64,000 nt of DNA from NCBI GenBank assembly GCA_002009975.1, contig MTLP01000031.1, positions 96,001 to 160,000 of the forward strand. Direction: 5' to 3'. The position numbers were made by a program, and so were the translations under genes. Below the pieces are notes generated by a model. That model did no database searches, was not told the origin of the DNA, and saw nothing but the letters and a program-made list of their open reading frames with translations. Origin of the DNA: Thermococcus sp. JdFR-02. GTDB lineage: Archaea; Methanobacteriota_B; Thermococci; Thermococcales; Thermococcaceae. This document shows, piece by piece, positions 15,833-45,497 of this stretch (its first letter is position 1; every line of letters starts with the position of its first letter).

Positions 15833-16615
15833 CTAATAATTGTTGTCCAAGTCAGCATAATCAACTTCCTTTTCATCTACTTCTTCAGCCTCAACCTTTT
15901 GGAGAATGTCGGCGAAATACTTTTCAAGCTCCTCTTGGCTTAGCTTTCTAAACTTCTTCTCTTTAACATCAATTACGGCAACTTCAACATATTCTGCCTT
16001 TGGCTCTTCCATGGTCTTAGCTAGGGCAAGCATTGCAAGCTTTATTGCATCTTCTAAAGTCATGTCATCAGTGTATTTCTCCTCAAATATTGCCATTGCT
16101 GTGTTTCTTCCACTTCCTATTGCTACAGCCTTCCACTCAAAGTATGCACCACTTGGATCCGTCTCAAAAAGTTGTGGTTTTTCATTAACTCCAGCCATTA
16201 ACAAAGCGGCACCAAAAGGTCTTACACCACCGTATTGGGTGTGCATTTGCTTTAAATCACAGATCTTTTTAACTAAAACTGCAAGATGAACGGGTTCTCC
16301 ATAAGTTAGGCGATAAATTTGAGCTTCTAAACGAGCTCTATCAACTAAAATTCTTGCATCTGCTATTATTCCACTTGAAGCAGCAGCTATATGCTCATCA
16401 ATTTGGAAAATCTTCTCATAGCTTTCTGGTTCTATTAATCTACTTGTTACTCTTTTTTCTACAGCCAAAACTACTCCATCTTTACATTTTATTCCTACAG
16501 CAGTTGCTCCTCTTTTTACGGCTTCTCTTGCATATTGCACTTGGAAAAGCCTTCCATCCGGGCTAAAAACAGTTATTGCCCTATCATACCCAGCTTGCGG
16601 TGGTACAAACGCCAT
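15833..16615 (-). CDS. psmA: Proteasome alpha subunit
   Basis: [28 protein letters not shown]. Confidence 0.97.
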
Positions 16616-16740
16616 TTTACATCACCTCTAATGATTATCGTAACAGTTATACAATATTCCCTCTCTCCACTTATAAGCTCTTTTAAATATTGGATACTTA
16701 AACTTTTGCATGAACGACAAAAGGAAAACACCGTCTCACA

Positions 16741-17103
16741 TTACTTCCAATCAAATTCTTTCAAAAACTTCATCTTAAGCCTCTTTATTGTCCCAGATAC
16801 ACCAAGCGTTCTCATTATAACCTTTGAACCATTTATCTGGGTAAGCATTGTCAAAGCAAATCTAACTTGCTCCACATAAGCCCTATCGCACCTTACAATT
16901 CCAGTCTGACTCTTCTCATCAAATCTTATGAACCAAATCTTAGCTTTAGCAGTTCCCAATTCCCCCAAAACTCTGAGAGAAGCCTCCCAAATTGCCTTTT
17001 TGATCTCTCCACTCTTAAATGTCCTCTCTCCAATAACCTGAAAAGCTATATATCTTTGCTTATCCCTAAGTGTTGGAGGTAGGGTTTTAGGTTTTTTGTT
17101 CAT
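16741..17103 (-). CDS. rnp2: RNase P protein component 2 (Pop5)
   Basis: [25 protein letters not shown]. Confidence 0.95.
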
Positions 17104-17237
17104 GGAGAAGACTAAAGCAAATGACTTATTAATCTTTATGTTTTGTCAAAATGTCAGAACTCCTCAAAATCTAAGATTCATTTTAGACAATCAACAATGA
17201 AAATTTGATTTTGTCAAATTTTGACGGAAATTCTCCC

Positions 17238-17252
17238 AAAAAAGCTTTAAGA
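17238..17252 (+). promoter_or_regulatory. Putative BRE/TATA promoter of the trpB2 leader
   Basis: AAAAAAGCTTTAAGA ~25 nt upstream of GATGCC at 17275. Confidence 0.5.
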
Positions 17253-17274
17253 GTAAAGTTCATTTAAAGACCTT

Positions 17275-17457
17275 GATGCCCTATGATGTTCAGGAGTGAG
17301 TGTCTTTGGAATAGGAGTTAGAGAGTTTAGAATTCTTCTGGTTAGCTTATTCTTCAAAATCAAAGGGCGGGATTGTTTTTGGAATACACATTCTTAGGTT
17401 TGAAGGTATGAATAACGCTTATTCTGATCTTTTTAAACTTTTTAGGAGGTGTTTTAG
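17275..17457 (+). promoter_or_regulatory. Structured 5' leader of trpB2 with uORF (candidate attenuator)
   Basis: GCCCT-A-TGAT..GGAGTGAG pairs with CTTATTCT..ATCA-A-AGGGC; uORF 17283-17321 MMFRSECLWNRS. Confidence 0.5.
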
Positions 17458-18798
17458 ATGAGAAGAGTTAAGGCAGTTTTAAAAGCCGAAGATATGCCAA
17501 ATAGGTGGTACAACATTTTGCCAGACTTGCCAGAGACTCTACCATTGCCTTTAGATCCAGAGACAAACAAGCCCATAAATCCAGCTAAGCTTGAGAGGAT
17601 TTTTGCAAAGGGATTGGTTAGGCAAGAAGTTAGCGACAAAAGGTATGTAAAAATTCCAGAGGAAGTTTTGGAGAAATACGTAAAAGTTGGTCGTCCAACA
17701 CCGCTTTTTAGAGCAACACATCTAGAGAAGGCATTGAAGACCCCAGCAAGGATTTACTTTAAATATGAAGGGGAAACGATAACGGGAAGCCACAAAATAA
17801 ACACCGCTTTAGCACAGGTCTACTACAACAAGCTTGAGGGAATTGAAAGGGTTGTAACAGAGACGGGAGCAGGACAATGGGGAACTGCTTTATCATTAGC
17901 CGGAGCTTTGTTTGATCTAAAAGTTAGGGTTTACATGGCAAGAGCCAGCTATCAACAAAAGCCATATAGAAAAGTGCTCATGCAAGTGTATGGAGCAGAG
18001 GTTTATCCTTCTCCAAGTGATAGAACGAAGGTTGGAAGATACTTCCTATCGCAAGATCCAAATCACCCCGGTGGATTAGGCATAGCAATAAGTGAAGCGA
18101 TTGAAGATGTATTAACGGATGAAAAAGCGCGCTACTCGTTAGGTAGTGTCTTGAACCATGTATTAATGCACCAGACAATCATAGGGGAAGAGGCTAAACT
18201 TCAAATGGAAATTCTTGGGGAAGAGGCAGACATAATAGTTGGCTGTGTTGGAGGAGGGAGCAACTTTGCTGGAATAGCATATCCCTTCATTAGGGATGCA
18301 ATAAAAGGAAGAAAGGAGATTAAATTTTATGCAATAGAACCTAAAGCCGCACCATCGATGACAAAGGGTATTTACACTTACGATTACGGAGACAGCGGGA
18401 GGTTAACGCCTTTAATAAAGATGCACACCTTAGGGCACATCTACAATGTTCCACCAATCCATGCGGGTGGCTTAAGATATCACGGTGTCGCACCAACTTT
18501 GAGTGTTTTAATTAATAACAACATCGTTAGTCCAAAAGCCTACCATCAAACCGAGATTTTTGAAGCAGCTATGCTCTTTGCAAGGACTGAGGGAATTGTT
18601 CCAGCACCAGAGAGTGCCCATGCAGTTAAAGGGGTTATAGATCTTGCTTTAAAAGCTAAGGAGAAAGGCGAAGAAAAAGTAATACTTTTTAACTTAAGTG
18701 GACACGGACTTTTGGATTTAAAAGGCTATGAAGACTATTTGGATGGAAAAATCCAAGATTATGAACCAAAAGAGATTCCAATTTTGAAAAGCTATTAG
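17458..18798 (+). CDS. trpB2: Tryptophan synthase beta chain, TrpB2 type
   Basis: [55 protein letters not shown]. Confidence 0.93.
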
Positions 18799-18799
18799 T

Positions 18800-19450
18800 T
18801 TATCTTTTTTCCAGCTTTTCTAAAATTTTTCTTGGATAAAAACTGATCGAAGCCTTTGCTTGGGGAATTTCCATTCCAATTGCAATTCCAAAGCTTGCTA
18901 AGTCTCTTGGAGCTCTTACTTCCCAAAAACTTTCTGCTGAAGAAGTTAAAAATCTTGGAACCTTGTATTTTTCTATCAATCGCCAGTTTCTCATCATAAA
19001 CTTTAAAATGTTCGCCCTCTCGTAGGGATTTGCCCTTAAAAGGGGAGCAAGAGAAAAGCCTATTGCAACATCATTCTTAGCCGCTAATCTAGCAAGAACA
19101 TGATCTAAGCCAGAGTCTCTTCTTCCAAATTCTGGGCTTATTAAAGCATCGACACCAATTTCAAGAGCAAAGCGGTTGATTTTTAAGCTCCCACCTTGGA
19201 CATATATTAAAGCTTTGAGATTCCTATTTTTCACTTCCCTAATCAAAGAAGGTTTGTTTGTTATCAAAAGCAGGGCAACTTTTTTATAACGCTCTCTAAG
19301 TTCTTTAAGCTCTTCTTTGAGCTTCCCATAATCTGGACTTTTCTCTAACTTAAGCTTTTTTGTAAAGACTACTTCATCAAACCATTCTTCAGCCAATTCG
19401 TAAGCCTTTGCATCCCTAATATCCATCTCAATGAACTGTAATGATGTCAT
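18800..19450 (-). CDS. rnp3: RNase P protein component 3 (Rpp30)
   Basis: [31 protein letters not shown]. Confidence 0.93.
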
Positions 19451-19902
19451 TCGCTCAACCACTCTCCAATAGCCCTTACAACGGTCTCTTTCTTCATTGG
19501 GAAGGATTTAACCTTTATTCTAACATGAATTACATCCTCTCCATCTAAAACTTTAATCTCTCCAAGGTAAGCCTTCTGCTTATCAAAGCGAATGTAGAAG
19601 GTTCCGTTCTCATCTACCTTTTCCTCTAAATTCTCCAAGAGAAATGCTTTATCTTCCTCGCTTAAGATGTTTTTGAGGTTTTCTAAAAACTTTCTAACGT
19701 TCCTACTTCTCTTTATCTCTGCATCAATAACGAGTATGGGATTTCCAAAGTATCCCTCTGTCTCAACCATTTCAAACTCCACATCTTTTGGAGACAAATC
19801 TTCAGGGAAGAGAGTTTCTAAAGCTTCTAAAACCTTTTCAGGATCTTCAGTGGCATGGACAAATGTTCTAATTTTGACATTATGAGCATTAAGCTTAACC
19901 AT
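19447..19902 (-). CDS. DUF54 RNA-binding protein (exosome superoperon)
   Basis: [25 protein letters not shown]. Confidence 0.88.
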
Positions 19903-19984
19903 AAATTTCACCCCAAAGTTAATTGGAAATAAGGTTTAAAAGCTTTTAACTGCCAAAAATACCTAAGAAAGAAATTAAACACCA

Positions 19985-21481
19985 TCAGCGATTTCTCAGC
20001 AATATCAGTACAATAAGTGCCGCAATTCCAATGATTATCGTTACAACGACTTTGTTTATGGGGATAAGAGCGCTGTTATCCCTTCTATTCTCTACTGTTG
20101 GTGGTAATCTTACACTCTCTTTAGAATTGTTAAATGTGGTAGCTTCAAGAAAAGCTACAATCTCTGGAGTTAGGTTTTCAATTCTTTGTCCGTCAAATTT
20201 TAAAATTATCCTATCGCTTGCCAAAATCCACTCCCTTCCATCCCAACCAATCCACCTTATCCACAAAGCGTCATTCAAAACTTGTCTAAGAGTTCCGTTA
20301 AAGAAGTAAAGTGAAGAACCATTATAAATCAACCAGCCCTTAGGACTCCACAAAACATTGGTGTTTTCTTTAAAATATTCCTTACGGCAGTCAAGTGTTA
20401 TGTAAAAGAGCTTGTGAAATTCAGATGCATTGAAGTTTTTGAGATTCATTTTCCCAACTTGAACAATGCTATCTGAGACTTCATAGAGCGTGCCATTGGC
20501 AAAAAGCAAAGCTTCACCATTGTGAAACTCAGACATCTGGGCTTTAGGACTCACAACAGTATTAAGGCTTGCATTTTTTGCATCATAGAGGTATGTCCCA
20601 TTGATGCTCACTAAAAAGAGCCTTCCCTTATATGCTTCTATGAGGGTGAAGTTGCCCGAAAAGCTTGCAACCTTTCTGAAATCTTCTGGAAAGTGATAAT
20701 AGCCCTTCAAAGGTTCTATTGCATAAAGAATTTTGTTATAGAGCAGATAAACTCTTTCAGAGTCATAAATTAGCTGGGAACTATTAAGAGAAAACTGCGA
20801 CGTTATTTTTAGCACTGGAACCGCATCTATGAGAATCACTGCCTCAGTAAAGTTTTGATTAAAAATCGCTAAGGCACCGTTCTTAAGGTTGCGAACAAAG
20901 TACAAGTATCCTTTTTGGGCCAACAAAGGTGAAGATGCATTTTTGAAATCTCCCGTTAAATATCCGTACTTCTTCACCTTCACTTGTCCATCCTTGATAG
21001 TAGACAACCAAAGGAGGGAATCAAAATGCTCCAAATTGCACCACATAGAGAAGCAGTAAAAGGGATGAAGTACAAGGTAGTAATCTCGATTCCAGAAAAT
21101 ACTCACTGCTCCATCATTCCGAAAGCTGAGCAATTCCCTAAATTCCCCGCTGGGATAAAGGTAGCCATAGTGATCATACACCCTACCGGGTAAGGGTCTA
21201 TCACACCCCTCACATCCATAAAAGAGACATCCTTGAGAAGAGCAGTGAATCGGAATCATAGTAAAGTTGGAGCAAACGTTGGTTTTGCATGGAAATGCTG
21301 TCAAGTTCAACAGTTCAAATCTATACTCTGAAGGAAAATAAACTACTAAAAGTTGAGTTGATGAATTTGTAATGTTAAAAATTGTTGGGTTTCCTATTAG
21401 AACGTTGTTAATAGTCAAAGAATAAGCTAAGTGAGTAAAGAGGAGCATAAAAAAGCAAAAAATGAGAAGTCTTCCCTTCAT
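19985..21481 (-). CDS. Hypothetical secreted, C-terminally membrane-anchored protein
   Basis: Signal peptide, many N-x-S/T sequons, beta-rich body, C-terminal TM followed by RNR. Confidence 0.7.
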   Translation of the reverse strand: MKGRLLIFCFFMLLFTHLAYSLTINNVLIGNPTIFNITNSSTQLLVVYFPSEYRFELLNLTAFPCKTNVCSNFTMIPIHCSSQGCLFYGCEGCDRPLPGRVYDHYGYLYPSGEFRELLSFRNDGAVSIFWNRDYYLVLHPFYCFSMWCNLEHFDSLLWLSTIKDGQVKVKKYGYLTGDFKNASSPLLAQKGYLYFVRNLKNGALAIFNQNFTEAVILIDAVPVLKITSQFSLNSSQLIYDSERVYLLYNKILYAIEPLKGYYHFPEDFRKVASFSGNFTLIEAYKGRLFLVSINGTYLYDAKNASLNTVVSPKAQMSEFHNGEALLFANGTLYEVSDSIVQVGKMNLKNFNASEFHKLFYITLDCRKEYFKENTNVLWSPKGWLIYNGSSLYFFNGTLRQVLNDALWIRWIGWDGREWILASDRIILKFDGQRIENLTPEIVAFLEATTFNNSKESVRLPPTVENRRDNSALIPINKVVVTIIIGIAALIVLILLRNR

Positions 21482-21483
21482 TT

Positions 21484-22395
21484 TCACCATCTGAGGCACG
21501 TATTCCTAATGTATGAAACTATGTTTATATCCCAGTCAAAGTAATATGCCCTATTTTCCCATATATTGCCACTTACGGCCTCTTGAGCAGACACATAATC
21601 ACATGCTCTCTGTAATTTATACTCAGAACTTCTAACAGCACCATCAGCCTCCATTTCTATATAAACATTGGAAGGATTACTGTTTCTTATCCATCTTAGA
21701 ATATCAACTAAGAGGCTGTAAGTGTACTCTATTTGGTTGCAGTTTGCACCAATCTTATCTGCAAAGCAGTATCCTGGTTGCGGAAATACATAGTCAAAGT
21801 ACTTTGACAACAGAGCAATTTCCGAGTATTTATTTAACCACAGTATTACATCATTATTTGTTATTACCCCATCACCATCTTGATCTGTTATTGTTCCGGA
21901 GCATAGAACACTCCTTAGTGTAGGGATCCAAATAAACTGCAAATCTTTTTCCAAGTCTCTTTCTACTTCTTGAATACGCCCTGAAATGGCATTGATTTCA
22001 TATTCAGTAATACGTCCGCTTTGTATAGGCTTAGCATCCTCTAAACTCCAATAGAATCCCTTAAAATAATAACTTTCAATACTTGCAACTCCATCAATCC
22101 AACCCTCCCAGTAACTCAAGCCTCTTTTTCCTCCACTGAGAGTAAAATAGGGTATTGTTACTAAATATGGAATACCGCTTGTTCCACCTAACCATTCTTT
22201 CACTCTCAAAGCAAGCTCTCTGCCATCATTATATCCATCACTATATGAAGAACCACTGAATTTTGTTCTTGTTCCTTCTCCATCCAAAGCCACTGCAAAG
22301 TGAAATCCATTAATATACAAATCATCTGGTGTTGCATTGCTAACTTGGATATATTCTCCATTGTATTTATACCACCACAGTGCATACCTTGCCAT
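21484..22395 (-). CDS. DUF4855-like (glycoside hydrolase-like) protein
   Basis: GFYWSLE, FIWIP, FDYVFPQPGY, YIEMEAD, AYYFD resemble DUF4855. Confidence 0.55.
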   Translation of the reverse strand: MARYALWWYKYNGEYIQVSNATPDDLYINGFHFAVALDGEGTRTKFSGSSYSDGYNDGRELALRVKEWLGGTSGIPYLVTIPYFTLSGGKRGLSYWEGWIDGVASIESYYFKGFYWSLEDAKPIQSGRITEYEINAISGRIQEVERDLEKDLQFIWIPTLRSVLCSGTITDQDGDGVITNNDVILWLNKYSEIALLSKYFDYVFPQPGYCFADKIGANCNQIEYTYSLLVDILRWIRNSNPSNVYIEMEADGAVRSSEYKLQRACDYVSAQEAVSGNIWENRAYYFDWDINIVSYIRNTCLRW

Positions 22396-22597
22396 GACAT
22401 CACCTCGATCCATAGTTCTTATTATGACTATTTAAACTTTTTGATTTTTTAACACTCTTGTTAGTATTAATGAAATTTTACCTCGTTATTCAGGTTTAGT
22501 TTAACCACCTAAAATCACAAAATGAATTGATAATTAGAAATTAGAACCAAATGCATAAAATCTAACAGAAAAGGGAACAAGAAGAAAGCTAAAAGCT

Positions 22598-23182
22598 TCA
22601 CTTACCCTTTCTACCTTTTGCCCTAATGCTTGGTCTAATCTTCTCAGCACCTTTACCCTTATTGAGCAATCCTCTACTTCTTTTTCCAGCTGATGTTAAA
22701 CCTCTAAATACTCTACCCTTATGGCCTCTTCCAGCGATCCAAGCTATCTTTGGATCAGATTTAATAACTGGGTGATGTGGATCAACTAAAATTACCTCAA
22801 ACCACTTATACATTCCATCCTCGCCAACCCAATATGAGTTTAGAACTTCCAAGTTTGGATATTTTCTTGCTGCCTTTTCCTCAGCAATCCATTGTAAGCT
22901 CTTCTTTGGTGAATATTTGACTTGACCCATCTTACTTGGCTTTCTTCCGCCTCTCCACCTTGGTCTCTTTCTTCCGCCTCTCCTAACCCTAACTCTCACA
23001 ACAACGTAACCTTGCTTTGCTTGATAACCCAAGCTTCTTGCCCTATCTAATCTGGTTGGTCTCTCAATTCTAATAATGCTTGGCTCTCTTCTCCACTTAA
23101 TCATTCTAACCTTCAACAATTCCCCAACATAGCTCTTCTTTGGGCTTTTCCAAGCTTCTCTAATGTACTTGTACATTCCCAT
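22598..23182 (-). CDS. rpl15e: 50S ribosomal protein L15e
   Basis: [36 protein letters not shown]. Confidence 0.97.
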
Positions 23183-23197
23183 CTTCTTCACCTCGCT

Positions 23198-23260
23198 TTC
23201 ACTGTTTGTGGTTCTCCGCAGAGCGGAACATCCCGCGGGCTAAACCCGCTTAGTCGTGGT
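23198..23260 (-). promoter_or_regulatory. eL15-Euryarchaeota ribosomal protein leader RNA
   Basis: GC-rich hairpins GCGGG-TTTAG-CCCGC and TCCGC-TCT-GCGGA between TATA (TTTAAAAA) and rpl15e RBS; position matches described eL15 r-leader. Confidence 0.7.
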
Positions 23261-23298
23261 GAGTTTAGAGTTTAGGTTTTTAAAGGTTACGATGGATT

Positions 23299-23493
23299 CT
23301 AAGTTTGCACTTTCCTTTTGCGATCCAAGAGTAGTTCTCCATCAATCCCAACATTCTCAGGAGAATTTTCCTTTATAAGCACAGTTATATGTCTTATTCC
23401 ATAAATCTTAGATGCTACCTCTGTAAGTTCCCTAACTAACTTCCTCTTCTTTTCAATATCAATTGGTGGTCCTTCGATGATTATGGTCGGCAT
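23299..23493 (-). CDS. 4-oxalocrotonate tautomerase family protein (DmpI-like)
   Basis: N-terminal Pro (MPTIIIEG), EKKRKLV, ENVGIDG. Confidence 0.88.
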   Translation of the reverse strand: MPTIIIEGPPIDIEKKRKLVRELTEVASKIYGIRHITVLIKENSPENVGIDGELLLDRKRKVQT

Positions 23494-23582
23494 CGTATCA
23501 CCCATTAAAATTTGCGTTGAAACATCATAAAAATTTCCTATCTTCCAAAACTTTTAAATACTAAAACCTCAAAAATAACGCC

Positions 23583-23727
23583 GATGCCAATGAGGGGGGA
23601 TAGAGTTCTCAACGATTAAAGGTTACTTCTATGCTGATCCCCCTATTTGGCACTATCAACGCTTTTCCCCTTTTGAAATGCAAACTGTTTTAAGTTCCCA
23701 TTTTAACAACTTCAAGGAGGTTAGGGT
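23583..23727 (+). promoter_or_regulatory. Structured 5' leader of leuS with uORF (candidate attenuator)
   Basis: TGCCAA-TG-AGGGGG..AT pairs with ATCCCCCT-AT-TTGGCA; uORF 23584-23619 MPMRGDRVLND; TATA-like CTTTTAAATA at 23551-23560. Confidence 0.6.
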
Positions 23728-26592
23728 ATGGTAGATTGGAAAGCAATTGAAGAAAAGTGGCAAAAGAAATGGAGCGAAGAGAAAGTCTTTGAACCTCAAA
23801 TTGGTGAAAAGCCAAAATTCTATATAACGGTAGCATTTCCTTACTTATCTGGGCATTTACATGTAGGACATGCAAGAACTTATACAATCCCAGACGTAAT
23901 TGCAAGATTCAAGAGAATGCAGGGATACAACGTATTATTCCCAATGGCTTGGCACATAACAGGTTCACCAATAGTTGGAATTGCAGAAAGAATTAAGCAT
24001 AGAGATCCCCAAACAATTTTCGTTTATAGAGACGTCTATAAAGTCCCTGAGGAGATTCTATGGACATTTGAAGATCCAGTGAATATCGTGAAGTACTTCA
24101 TGAAAGCAGCAAAAGAGACTTTTAATAGAGCTGGATTTAGCGTAGATTGGAGTAGAGAATTCCACACAACATCTCTACATCCGCAGTTCAATGCTTTCAT
24201 AACTTGGCAGTTCTTAAAGCTAAAGGAGAAGGGATTAGTTGTTAAAGGAACTCACAGAGTTAGATGGGATCCTGTTGTTGGGACTCCTTTAGGAGATCAC
24301 GACTTAATTGAAGGCGAAGATGTTCAAATCTTAGAATATATCCTAATCAAGTTCATCTTAGAAGAAAATGGTAAGCGTATTTATTTACCAGCCGCAACCC
24401 TAAGACCAGAAACAGTTTATGGAGTAACTAATATGTGGCTAAATCCAGATGCTACATACGTTAAAGCAAAGGTTAATGATGAAATTTGGGTCATAAGCAG
24501 AGAAGCCGCTTATAAGTTAAGCTTTCAAGACAAGAAGATTGAAGTCTTAGAGGAATTCAAAGGAGAAAAATTAATTGGAAAATGGGTCAAAAACCCAGTA
24601 ACTGGCGATGAAATTATCATTCTACCAGCAGATTTTGTTGATCCAGATAATGCAACCGGTGTAGTTATGAGTGTTCCAGCACATGCGCCCTTTGATCATG
24701 CGGCATTAGAGGACATTAAAAAGAATACTGAGCTATTGTTAAAGTACGACATTGATCCTAGGATTGTAGAAAACATAAGCTACATTTCTTTAATTAAGTT
24801 AGAGGGATATGGAGAATTCCCAGCAGTTGAAGAGGCTCAAAAATTGGGTGTTAAGAGTCAGGAAGATAAAGAAAAGTTAGAGCAGGCAACAAAGAACATC
24901 TACAAAGCTGAGTTCCATAAGGGTGTGTTCAAGATAGAACCATACAAAGGAGTTCCTGTGAGCAAAGTAAAAGACCTGATTGCCAACGATATGAAAGAGA
25001 AAGGAATAGCTGATATGATGTATGAATTTGCTGAAAAGAACGTTATTTCGAGATTTGGAAATAGAGCGGTAATTAAAATTATTCATGACCAATGGTTCAT
25101 AGATTATGGAAACCCAGAATGGAAAGAAAAGGCGAGAGAAGCTTTAGCCAACATGAAGATTTTACCAGAGTCAAGAAGAGCTCAATTTGAAGCTATTGTC
25201 GAGTGGTTAGACAAGAAAGCTTGTGCAAGGAAAGTGGGTTTAGGAACATCACTACCTTGGGACAGGGAATGGGTTATCGAAAGCTTGAGCGATTCAACCA
25301 TTTATATGGCTTACTACACAATTTCAAGAGTTATCAACAAGCATGGAATTAAAGGGGAACAATTAATCCCAGAGTTATTTGATTACATATTCTTAGAAGA
25401 GTTCAGTGGAGCTAGGGAGGAAGAGCTAGGCAAAAAGACCGGAATTCCAAAGGAAGTTATTAGAGAGATGAAAGAAGAGTTCGAGTACTGGTATCCATTA
25501 GACTGGAGATGCTCAGCTAAGGACTTAATTCCAAATCACTTAACATTCTTCATATTCAACCACGTTGCAATATTCAAGAAGAAGCACTGGCCAAGAGGAA
25601 TTGCTGTAAACGGGTATGGAACATTAGAAGGCAAGAAAATGAGCAAGAGTAAGGGTAATGTCTTGAACTTTATTGATGCAATTAAGGAAAATGGAGCAGA
25701 TGTAGTGAGATTTTATATCATGAGCTTAGCTGAACATGACAGTGACTTCGATTGGAGAAGAGCAGAGGTTGCAAAGTTAAAGGGACAATTGGAGAGATTT
25801 TACGAACTAATAGAACAATTTGCAAGCTATGAAATCAGAGAAGGCGTTAAACTAAAAGATATTGATCGCTGGCTATTACACCGCTTAAACAAGGCAATTT
25901 ATGAAACCACAAAAGCTTTAGATGAATTTAGGACAAGAACGGCATCTCAATGGGCATTCTACAGCATTTTAAATGACCTAAAATGGTACATGAGAAGAAC
26001 TGAAGGAAGAGATGACGATGCAAAGCGCTATGTGTTAAGAAGCTTAGCAGATGTTTGGGTTAGGTTAATGGCACCGTTTACACCTCACATCTGTGAAGAA
26101 TTGTGGCAAAAATTAGGCGGAAATGGATTCGTGAGCTTAGCTAAGTGGCCCGAGCCTAAAGAAGAGTGGTGGAACGAGGAGCTGGAAATTGAGGAGGAAT
26201 ACATCAAAGACCTAATTGATGATATCAAAGAAATTCTAAGCGTTGCAAAGATTGAGAATCCAAAGAGGGCTTACATTTATACAGCTGAAGATTGGAAGTG
26301 GAAGATAGCGGAGATAGTTGCCCAAAAGAAGGACTTCAAAGCGGCAATGAGTGAAGCCATGAAAGACCCAGAGATGAGAAAGAAAGGTAAAGAAGTTGCC
26401 AACCTCGTGAATAGATTAATAAAAGAGAGGGTCTTTGAAGTGAAGCGCATTGACGAAGAAAAAGCATTGAGAGAATCAAAAGACTTCATTGAGAAAGAAA
26501 TTGGTTTAGAAATAATTATCAATCCAGAAGAGGATAAAGGTGGAAAGAAGAAGCAAGCAATGCCAATGAAACCTGCCGTGTTTATTGAGTAA
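23728..26592 (+). CDS. leuS: Leucine--tRNA ligase
   Basis: HIGH-like HVGH, KMSKS, CP1 ATLRPET, archaeal LeuRS C-terminus. Confidence 0.97.
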
Positions 26593-41440: not shown

Positions 41441-41518
41441 TGGTGGGGCCGCCGGGATTTGAACCCGGGTCTCCGGCGCCCCAGGCCGAGAGGATGGACC
41501 AAGCTACCCCACGGCCCC
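41441..41518 (-). tRNA. tRNA-Pro(GGG)
   Basis: GGGGCCG...anticodon loop CTGGGGC...GTTCAAATC...CGGCCCCACCA; CCA encoded. Confidence 0.95.
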
Positions 41519-43056: not shown

Positions 43057-43144
43057 TGGTGCGGGGGCGGGGATTTGAACCCCGGAACCCCTGCGGGACG
43101 GGACCCTAAATCCCGCGCCTTTGACCAGGCTCGGCAACCCCCGC
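43057..43144 (-). tRNA. tRNA-Leu(TAG)
   Basis: GCGGGGG...CGGGA-TTTAGGG-TCCCG, long variable arm, GTTCAAATC, ACCA. Confidence 0.95.
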
Positions 43145-45410: not shown

Positions 45411-45497
45411 TGGCGCCGGGACGGGGATTTGAACCCCGGCGGGCAAACGCCCACGGGCTCTCAAGGCCCGCGCCTTCCCAGGCTAGGCAATCCCGGC
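45411..45497 (-). tRNA. tRNA-Ser(TGA)
   Basis: GCCGGGA...CGGGC-CTTGAGA-GCCCG, long variable arm, GTTCAAATC, GCCA. Confidence 0.95.

Follow-up and report, generated by a model that had tools for sequence, protein, structure and literature searches.

A candidate +1 frameshift cassette as an aminoacyl-tRNA sensor in the leaders of amino-acid genes of the Thermococci

In the bacterial gene prfB, a Shine-Dalgarno (SD)-like element lies 5' of a shift site at which the P-site codon ends in UU and re-pairs in the +1 frame, and a slow codon in the A site sets the frequency of the event. Frame 0 closes at once, and the product is encoded in the +1 frame. This frameshift is autoregulatory, according to the section of a review that treats it (PMC5009743). 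Here we describe a related arrangement in the leaders of two genes, trpB2 and leuS, on a 64,000-nucleotide (nt) stretch of Thermococcus sp. JdFR-02 (contig MTLP01000031.1, positions 96,001 to 160,000 of the forward strand), hereafter the window. The core of both leaders is an 18-nt cassette which consists of an SD-like stretch complementary to the 3' end of 16S rRNA, 5 nt, a slippery NUU codon and one fixed codon. The cassette, its complementarity to 16S rRNA, the match of the fixed codon to the gene downstream and the layout of the reading frames are all seen by comparison of sequences. They make it probable that programmed +1 ribosomal frameshifting at a hungry cognate codon couples a shortage of the aminoacyl-tRNA to translation of the gene. 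It further seems fairly likely that the class Thermococci uses the cassette as a portable, programmable sensor of a single aminoacyl-tRNA. Shortage would lead to a +1 slip. In some cases the slip would take the ribosome across a leader to the point where a synthetase, biosynthesis or transporter gene begins; in others it would itself yield a transcription regulator. Specificity would reside in one codon and sensitivity in the number of cassettes placed in series.

The winged-helix regulator gene described below has exactly the layout of the prfB gene. In the cassettes, however, the slow A-site codon is a sense codon and the sensed molecule would be an aminoacyl-tRNA, whereas in prfB it is a stop codon and the release factor is sensed; in addition, the +1 product of the leaders would be a throw-away peptide that reaches the next gene, and the hosts are archaea. 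A +1 frameshift at a hungry codon is made by yeast Ty1 at CUU_AGG_C, as given in a passage of the same review (PMC5009743). The hungry-codon principle is shared, and several cassettes also have CUU in the P site, but an SD-like stimulator is absent from Ty1, amino-acid supply is not a regulatory signal for it, and its product is a fusion protein. The output logic proposed here is that of the ketolide-induced ermC leader open reading frame (ORF), where, in the account given in part of the review, frame-changed ribosomes enter the spacer, unfold the mRNA and permit downstream initiation (PMC5009743); ermC differs in its antibiotic inducer, in lacking cognate-codon specificity and an SD-like stimulator, and in being bacterial. 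Bacterial attenuators such as trpL, leuL and pheL likewise report the supply of charged tRNA, by way of a short leader ORF that contains codons of the amino acid under regulation. They employ runs of cognate codons, stalling and terminator/antiterminator hairpins, whereas the present leaders have one codon per cassette, a slip site and a +1 frame which ends on the start codon; frameshifting at pheL is called incidental where the review mentions it (PMC5009743). The T-box (RF00230) also controls aminoacyl-tRNA synthetase and amino-acid genes through a single leader codon that specifies the amino acid, but it binds tRNA without translation and has a large conserved structure, whereas the codon here lies inside a predicted upstream ORF (uORF). 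The archaeal frameshift cases listed in the relevant section of the review are haloviruses, Mg-chelatase and a Sulfolobus gene (PMC5009743), and full-text searches of the literature found no published description of such a frameshift-based amino-acid sensor. Long leaders as such are on record: the mRNAs of the leucyl- and tryptophanyl-tRNA synthetases of P. abyssi have long 5' untranslated regions (PMC3849170), as do those of 11 aminoacyl-tRNA biosynthesis genes of T. kodakarensis (PMC4247193), with no mechanism given in the sections of the two papers that report them.

Both leaders of the window, with all their elements, lie on the forward strand. The leuS leader (145 nt, 23583-23727) begins with GATGCC (23583-23588), 22 nt after the TATA box TTTAAATA (23553-23560), and the corresponding GATGCC of trpB2 (17275-17280) is preceded by a TATA-like box, CTTTAAGA (17244-17251), which ends 23 nt upstream of G17275. 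An earlier note on this DNA, which had placed both starts about 25 nt after a TATA-like box, was correct on this point, and in 29 of the 30 leuS orthologue leaders the TATA box ends 21-23 nt upstream of GATGC. For comparison, transcription in T. kodakarensis initiates ~23 bp past the TATA box, as stated in a section of PMC4247193. The two short uORFs reported in the same note are likewise present. That of leuS is leaderless and encodes MPMRGDRVLND in frame 0, followed by a stop (23584-23619). It includes the cassette (23593-23610), which is composed of the SD-like AGGGGGG (23593-23599), a 5-nt spacer, the slippery GUU (23605-23607) and CUC (23608-23610). Frame 0 stops at -111 relative to the gene. 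The +1 frame (23609-23734), open for 41 codons, has its stop at +4, where UAG (23732-23734) overlaps the leuS start. Further downstream are CCCCCUA (23639-23645), the pairing partner of the G-run, and the SD of the gene, AAGGAGG (23714-23720), which in relatives pairs with a conserved CUCUU block; leuS itself (23728-26592) encodes an archaeal leucine--tRNA ligase of 954 amino acids (TIGR00395, 1216 bits).

The trpB2 leader (183 nt, 17275-17457, from the inferred transcript start to the last base before the start codon) is kept in relatives and contains two cassettes. The first (17292-17309) has the SD-like AGGAGUG (17292-17298), a 5-nt spacer, the slippery CUU (17304-17306) and UGG (17307-17309), and lies in the frame-0 uORF found in the sequence and by simulation of frame paths, MMFRSECLWNRS plus stop (17283-17321); frame 0 past this cassette stops at 17319-17321. 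The +1 frame (17308-17397) runs in frame into a second cassette (17365-17382; SD-like GGGCGGG, 5-nt spacer, slippery UUU at 17377-17379, UGG at 17380-17382) and, absent a second shift, ends at UAG (17395-17397). After a second +1 shift, the frame then read (17381-17461) meets no stop until UGA (17459-17461), which shares bases with the trpB2 start codon as AUGA. The two shift sites of this leader (locus L003) are located at -151 and -78. Its SD, AGGAGGUG (17444-17451), is paired with 17384-17395 in the predicted fold, and trpB2 (17458-18798) encodes a TrpB-like pyridoxal phosphate enzyme of 446 amino acids (NF009057, 711 bits). The 5'-terminal AUG opens a mini-ORF of 7 codons, MPYDVQE (17276-17299), whose UGA stop falls within the SD-like element. 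The mini-ORF and the first cassette are in different frames, and the same layout is found in the trpB2 leaders of relatives. The second UGG cassette, the reading-frame relations and a read-out by frameshift had not been part of the earlier note.

This leader family is kept across all six genera sampled, far beyond what chance would give in sequence comparison. Orthologues were fetched by protein search in 61 genomes of the family to which this organism belongs (Thermococcaceae), with trpB2 found in 42/61 and leuS in 61/61. All 30 of the leuS upstream regions read have a TATA box followed by GATGC-NN-AUG-AGG-GGG-GAK-NNN-NUU-CUC, and one of these leaders (L037, genome G009) is split by an insertion. 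The insertion in L037, of ~1.15 kb, lies directly past the cassette and encodes an IS605-type TnpB-like protein. No obvious AUG starts the inserted ORF, across the whole of which the +1 frame is open, for 1285 nt in all, up to the leuS start. The trpB2 orthologue leaders are also conserved and carry 1-4 copies of a related motif ending in UUUGG. A pattern of the leuS form matched 94 of 97 family genomes, with 1-3 matches per genome, while the reversed control had 0 matches. Fifty of these matches were fetched, and the gene downstream was read from its N-terminus.

The earlier note had proposed as a test to ask whether this codon varies with the amino acid that the downstream gene serves, and the match was found in every gene family. 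For leuS the codon is CUC in 45/45 distinct leaders (48/48 when the window, L042 and L037 are added), for ileS it is AUC in 27/27 (28/28 with this genome's own ileS leader), and for trpB2 it is UGG at all 72 shift sites in 27 leaders. A UGG leader is also present in this genome before an NSS/SNF-type transporter gene; orthologues of that gene with at least 79% identity have 1-2 UGG cassettes in 13/15 genomes, and five distant paralogues have none. By hand arithmetic, the chance of such a match for the three genes of known specificity is roughly (6/61)(3/61)(1/61). The suggestion of the earlier note that a leader family reads the status of charged tRNA through a uORF with a cognate codon thus gains comparative support from the codon-to-gene match. 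Its proposed context for that codon, TT-codon-AAY, held in part: UU together with UGG (17307-17309) or CUC (23608-23610) is conserved in the orthologues seen, and AAY is not. The 3' features it had listed proved mostly uninformative: the pyrimidine tract (CUCUU) and a strong ribosome-binding site are conserved, AACGCTT is not conserved in relatives, and GGTTAG recurs in trpB2 and ileS leaders.

This genome has two copies of the ileS-type leader together with its first three codons, one ahead of ileS and the other ahead of the gene of an EamA-family transporter. The assembly breaks within this repeat, at the ends of contigs C8 and C30 (minus strand) and the starts of C15 and C39, and the break leaves the assignment of promoter region to gene ambiguous between ileS and the EamA-family gene. 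When a profile of the leuS leader was run against the genome with nhmmer, only leuS and the two ileS-type copies stood out, and the next matches lay in coding sequence. Regular-expression and frame-signature scans of the same genome found no further amino acids; the latter scan gave six candidates, of which leuS and NSS are real and four look like chance. Matches at C22:20858 (CUC) and C1:164542 (UGG) were set aside, as their context gave no support. Outside the family, pattern matches L160 and L161 proved to be the ordinary start of eL15 (SD plus UUG), and L155, L158 and L162-L172 were ordinary gene starts or chance.

The reading frames are arranged in the same way throughout. The 5'-terminal AUG of the leuS and ileS leaders sets the frame in which the cassette lies, and in 72/72 of them frame 0 meets a stop inside the leader, 6-33 nt past the cognate codon and 51-101 nt before the gene. 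The +1 frame has its stop within -15 to +23 of the main start in 72/72; the stop is exactly AUGA in 22/27 ileS leaders and mostly at +4 or +5 in leuS. In comparison, the +2 frame reaches the start in 16/45 leuS and 0/27 ileS leaders, and when the stretch from codon to start was shuffled, an open +1 frame was expected in 10.3/45 leuS and 10.8/25 ileS leaders. Since leader length ranges from 94 to 153 nt, the +1 frame has survived many insertions and deletions. This frame cannot be entered by ordinary initiation. UGA closes it directly upstream of the cassette in all leuS and ileS leaders examined, and starts of its own are absent or unconserved: AUG, GUG and UUG are all missing from it in 16/45 leuS and 11/25 ileS leaders, an AUG is found in 6/45 and 0/25, respectively, and other starts are not positionally conserved.

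For trpB2, paths from an upstream AUG to the main start were simulated with a +1 shift at each in-frame NUU-UGG. The simulation covered 28 of 30 loci, the remaining two having no start recognised by the rule. A path was found in 27/28 leaders with +1 shifts, in 0/28 without a shift and in 0/28 with +2 shifts. To reach the gene, a ribosome on a trpB2 leader has to shift by +1 between one and four times in succession, always at a UGG cassette (one site in one leader, two in nine, three in fifteen and four in two), and the UGG codons, one per cassette, lie in successive +1 frames. The read-out suggested by these frames is a +1 frameshift, and classical stalling attenuation is not the best fit.

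The SD-like element has the properties expected of a stimulator of this kind in its sequence and predicted pairing. The 3' end of 16S rRNA reads ...GGCUCGAUCACCUCCU in five genera, from which the tail was taken; the 16S of this genome is not assembled. The cassette forms GGGGGGAUCGAG and AGGAGUGAUCG are near-complements of that tail, and the predicted duplexes have a mean energy (RNAduplex) of -13.8 kcal/mol, compared with -13.2 kcal/mol for the genes' own SD regions. Spacings derived from RNAduplex end positions were uninterpretable, and the energies alone were used. In the trp cassettes, G is found at -14, -13, -11 and -9 in 68-70 of 72 sites, the two odd ones being fourth sites (L028 and L030). 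Read by eye from the alignment, the distance from the GGNGG core to NUU is 5-6 nt, as opposed to 7-8 nt to genuine AUGs, and with this shorter distance from SD to P site the pairing with 16S rRNA would pull the ribosome forward. The P-site codon is GUU or CUU in leuS, UUU in ileS, UUU or CUU in trp and NUU in the regulator gene, such that re-pairing from NUU to UUN is possible at every cassette; the invariance of NUU is partly built into the search patterns, and the sets fetched by orthologue agree with it. GUU, CUU and UUU would be read by G34 tRNAs, each with a single gene, and all can retain two or more pairs after a +1 slip. This genome has single genes for tRNA-Leu(GAG), tRNA-Ile(GAU) and tRNA-Cys(GCA), and ARAGORN found no tRNA-Trp gene across the whole genome, where an intron-containing or unassembled gene is possible. 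In the window itself, ARAGORN also gave a tRNA-Leu(UAG) at 43057-43144 (minus strand) which the Rfam scan at gathering score did not list, and tRNA-Pro(GGG) and tRNA-Ser(UGA) are located at 41441-41518 and 45411-45497.

A gene for a winged-helix regulator carries the cassette into its own coding sequence. At one pattern match (L066), UGC is followed immediately by a stop and no in-frame gene is nearby, while a winged-helix protein is encoded in +1 from NUU|UGC onwards. The product belongs to Pfam HTH_5/HTH_20, and its helix-turn-helix (HTH) domain of 67-111 codons lies wholly in the +1 frame, without a start of its own. At 31/31 loci the gene opens with SD-AUG-AGG-GGG-GAU-NNN-NUU-UGC, and frame 0 is closed after 1-21 codons, with the domain in +1; one of the 31 (L145) is a one-base variant of this start and was read by eye. 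Homologues occur in 34/97 family genomes, namely all those of three genera, 2/3 genomes of a fourth and the present genome, and in 0/62 genomes of the largest genus. The same layout is present in 5 genomes of another family of the class, on an apparently leaderless mRNA. A wider scan of contigs gave, among the matches listed, 82 stretches, of which 75 were parsed and at least 12 are true regulator genes, the others being chance; all of these at least 12 genes are labelled Thermococcus or Thermococci or placed in the class Thermococci, although the listed matches say little about the spread of the gene. In the genome under study, the gene (L150, L173) is found outside the window at C9:24779-25043 (plus strand). 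It has an SD, begins AUG-AGG-AGG-GAU-UUA-CUU-UGC, reaches a frame-0 stop after 14 codons and continues with an 80-codon HTH domain in +1, and automatic annotation would probably truncate it or label it broken. From its sequence, the regulator could be made only if the frame changes by +1 at the cassette, unless a conserved gene is broken everywhere.

The long hairpins that the earlier note had drawn at both 5' ends do appear in the minimum-energy folds of the window leaders, but are only modestly better than shuffled sequences (trpB2 z = -1.72, with 12/200 shuffles as good; leuS z = -2.27, 4/200). Across 38 leuS leaders, RNAalifold keeps only two short helices, G-run:CCCCCU and CUCUU:AGGAG, the latter with the SD of the gene, in which 96.2% of 416 cells pair. 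By this model the CUCUU:AGGAG helix would hide the leuS SD until a +1-reading ribosome passes. Neither leader has an Rfam match, at gathering score over the whole window or at E <= 10 for 16700-24000, and a minus-strand match to RgsA near the leaders (E = 3) was taken as chance. The motif GGUUAG(C), at 17340-17346 of the window, recurs in trpB2 leaders of several genera, and ileS leaders have an invariant UAG (alignment columns 79-81) in a frame which is on neither the 0 nor the +1 path; these may be a frame guard or a structural element.

RNA-library contigs from a strain with ~97% identity (one sample, sequenced in four runs of a single study) cover 17305-18110 of trpB2 and 23472-24000 of leuS; such contigs are uninformative on transcript starts, ends, strand and level, may include carried-over DNA and drop rare variants. 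They have no insertion or deletion at either cassette. The sole one in the leaders is a one-base deletion at 17416, with which, by hand calculation, the trpB2 path no longer ends at AUGA but at a UAA located 11 nt inside the gene, and the frame stays open. In one contig of this strain, window positions 19913-22590 (2678 nt) are replaced by 54 other letters, and the strain thus seems to be without the ORFs at 19985-21499 and 21484-22413 (minus strand).

We propose that a ribosome would start at an AUG at, or a few bases from, the 5' end of the transcript, on a leaderless uORF. The anti-SD tail of 16S rRNA would then pair with the G-rich element and place NUU in the P site and CUC, AUC, UGG or UGC in the A site. 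With plentiful cognate aminoacyl-tRNA, decoding would proceed in frame 0 and terminate 1-21 codons further on, far from the gene. If the cognate aminoacyl-tRNA were scarce, the empty A site and the pull of the SD:anti-SD duplex would let the P-site tRNA re-pair from NUU to UUN, and the ribosome would continue in +1. It might then cross the leader, melt the helix that holds the SD and stop on or beside the main AUG, and the gene would be translated through coupling or re-initiation. The two to four chained cassettes of trpB2 leaders would make the response steep, and in the winged-helix gene the +1 frame would be the protein itself. The outcome makes sense for the targets, as shortage would yield more leucyl- or isoleucyl-tRNA synthetase, more tryptophan synthesis or uptake, and the regulator upon shortage of Cys-tRNA. 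In this scheme the slipping itself, its dependence on tRNA charging, the direction of regulation and the step of unmasking or coupling are what we infer.

Several observations weigh against this proposal, whose entire support is comparative. Sequences within a genus are close kin and the counts given above overstate independence, such that ~12 gene-by-genus lineages are a fairer sample size; the G positions and the UU of the pattern-fetched leuS and ileS sets are partly built into the search pattern, the unbiased sets being those fetched by orthologue. Some expected members are missing: two NSS orthologues (L257 and L266) yielded no frame path, one trpB2 locus (L022) has no cassette and no UUUGG at all, and the valS of this genome has a short leader without a cassette, which means that the cassette is not a general feature of synthetase genes. 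The start of the transcript is placed at GATGC only by its distance from the TATA box. The cassette of trpB2 leaders does not share the frame of the 5'-terminal AUG, and the AUG that is in its frame comes 7 nt later. A series of three or four shifts would be very inefficient unless each is frequent. The leuS helices rest on conservation and not on covariation, since almost none was found: only 1/11 pairs changes on both sides (3 cells; 3/500 shuffles reach the score). The ileS leaders have no convincing consensus helix. Finally, cysteine as the amino acid sensed by the regulator is without supporting gene context, as the neighbours of the regulator genes include no cysteine-related genes and those in the present genome give no clue to the regulon.

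A change of frame would be unnecessary if the leaders worked by stalling of a leader peptide, in which a pause at the cognate codon would block the G-run:CCCCCU helix and refolding would free the SD or bypass a U-tract terminator. Every leader does have a short 5' uORF with the cognate codon, two helices are conserved of which one holds the main SD, U-rich tracts lie downstream in the leaders, though termination in archaea follows different rules, and the SD-like element could simply prolong the pause. We nevertheless regard stalling as unlikely, since it leaves unexplained why 72/72 leaders have a +1 frame that stays open as far as the main start when ~21/70 would be expected, why UU is constant before the cognate codon, why the later trpB2 cassettes lie in successive +1 frames without a start codon, and how a regulator protein encoded wholly in +1 is made. 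Moreover, each cassette has a single cognate codon, and a set of alternative hairpins was not found.

The same downstream frame would result if RNA polymerase slipped in a G-run or U-run and dropped one base, fusing the uORF to the +1 frame in part of the mRNA, as the loss of one upstream base is equivalent to a +1 ribosomal shift; many cassettes do have runs of G6 or U5. We consider this very improbable. The runs are not conserved, the trp cassettes being AGGAGUGAU and those of one genus AGGAGGGAU, and the leuS sites, GUU-CUC, have two U only. Polymerase slippage also gives no reason for the match of the next codon to the amino acid of the gene, and the RNA-library contigs have no cassette indel, though they drop rare variants. 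An RNA bound without translation, either by uncharged tRNA in the manner of a T-box, as the earlier note had considered, or by a regulator protein that recognises the G-rich motif and codon, is a still poorer candidate. Like the specifier of a T-box, the codon corresponds to the amino acid, and the motif is repeated 2-4 times in trpB2 leaders like the sites of a multimeric RNA-binding protein, but no T-box is matched in Rfam even at E <= 10, neither a long conserved structure resembling Stem I nor a conserved partner for the tRNA 3' end was seen, and the in-frame AUG, the early frame-0 stop, the open +1 frame and the regulator gene are left unexplained. Chance resemblance of two promoter-proximal regions, which the earlier note had allowed for because the window has only two examples, and whose hairpins are only modestly better than shuffles, is refuted by a pattern present in 94/97 genomes against none in the reversed control, and by a perfect codon-to-gene match over three amino acids and five gene families.

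The trpB2 gene is flanked by opposite-strand genes for RNase P proteins, Pop5/Rpp14 (16741-17103) and Rpp30 (18800-19462), with a proteasome alpha subunit gene nearby at 15833-16615. Divergent from leuS is a small tautomerase-family ORF of 68 amino acids (23299-23505, minus strand), and the two share a 222-nt intergenic region which holds the leuS promoter and leader. An eL15-Euryarchaeota ribosomal protein leader (RF03144) was detected at 23205-23248 on the minus strand (35.1 bits, barely over the gathering score), and precedes rpl15e (22598-23191, minus strand).

How archaea match the expression of aminoacyl-tRNA synthetase and amino-acid genes to the supply of amino acids is the question to which these leaders speak. 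According to the sections of two transcriptome papers that bear on it, no attenuator or riboswitch has been shown to work in Archaea (PMC4247193; PMC3849170). If the proposed frameshifting is true, no regulatory frameshift specific for an amino acid would precede it, and among Archaea it would be the first case of ribosome-mediated control resembling attenuation. It would join the sensing of charged tRNA by leader peptides with SD-stimulated +1 frameshifting at a slow A-site codon, a combination undescribed in the literature searched. The proposal accounts for the repeat that breaks the present assembly, predicts a mis-annotated family of regulator genes whose expression depends on frameshifting, and would provide synthetic biology with a compact sensor part, programmable by codon, for use at high temperature. 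For the Thermococci, the long leaders of synthetase genes would gain a concrete mechanism, and one that is testable in genetically tractable hyperthermophiles.

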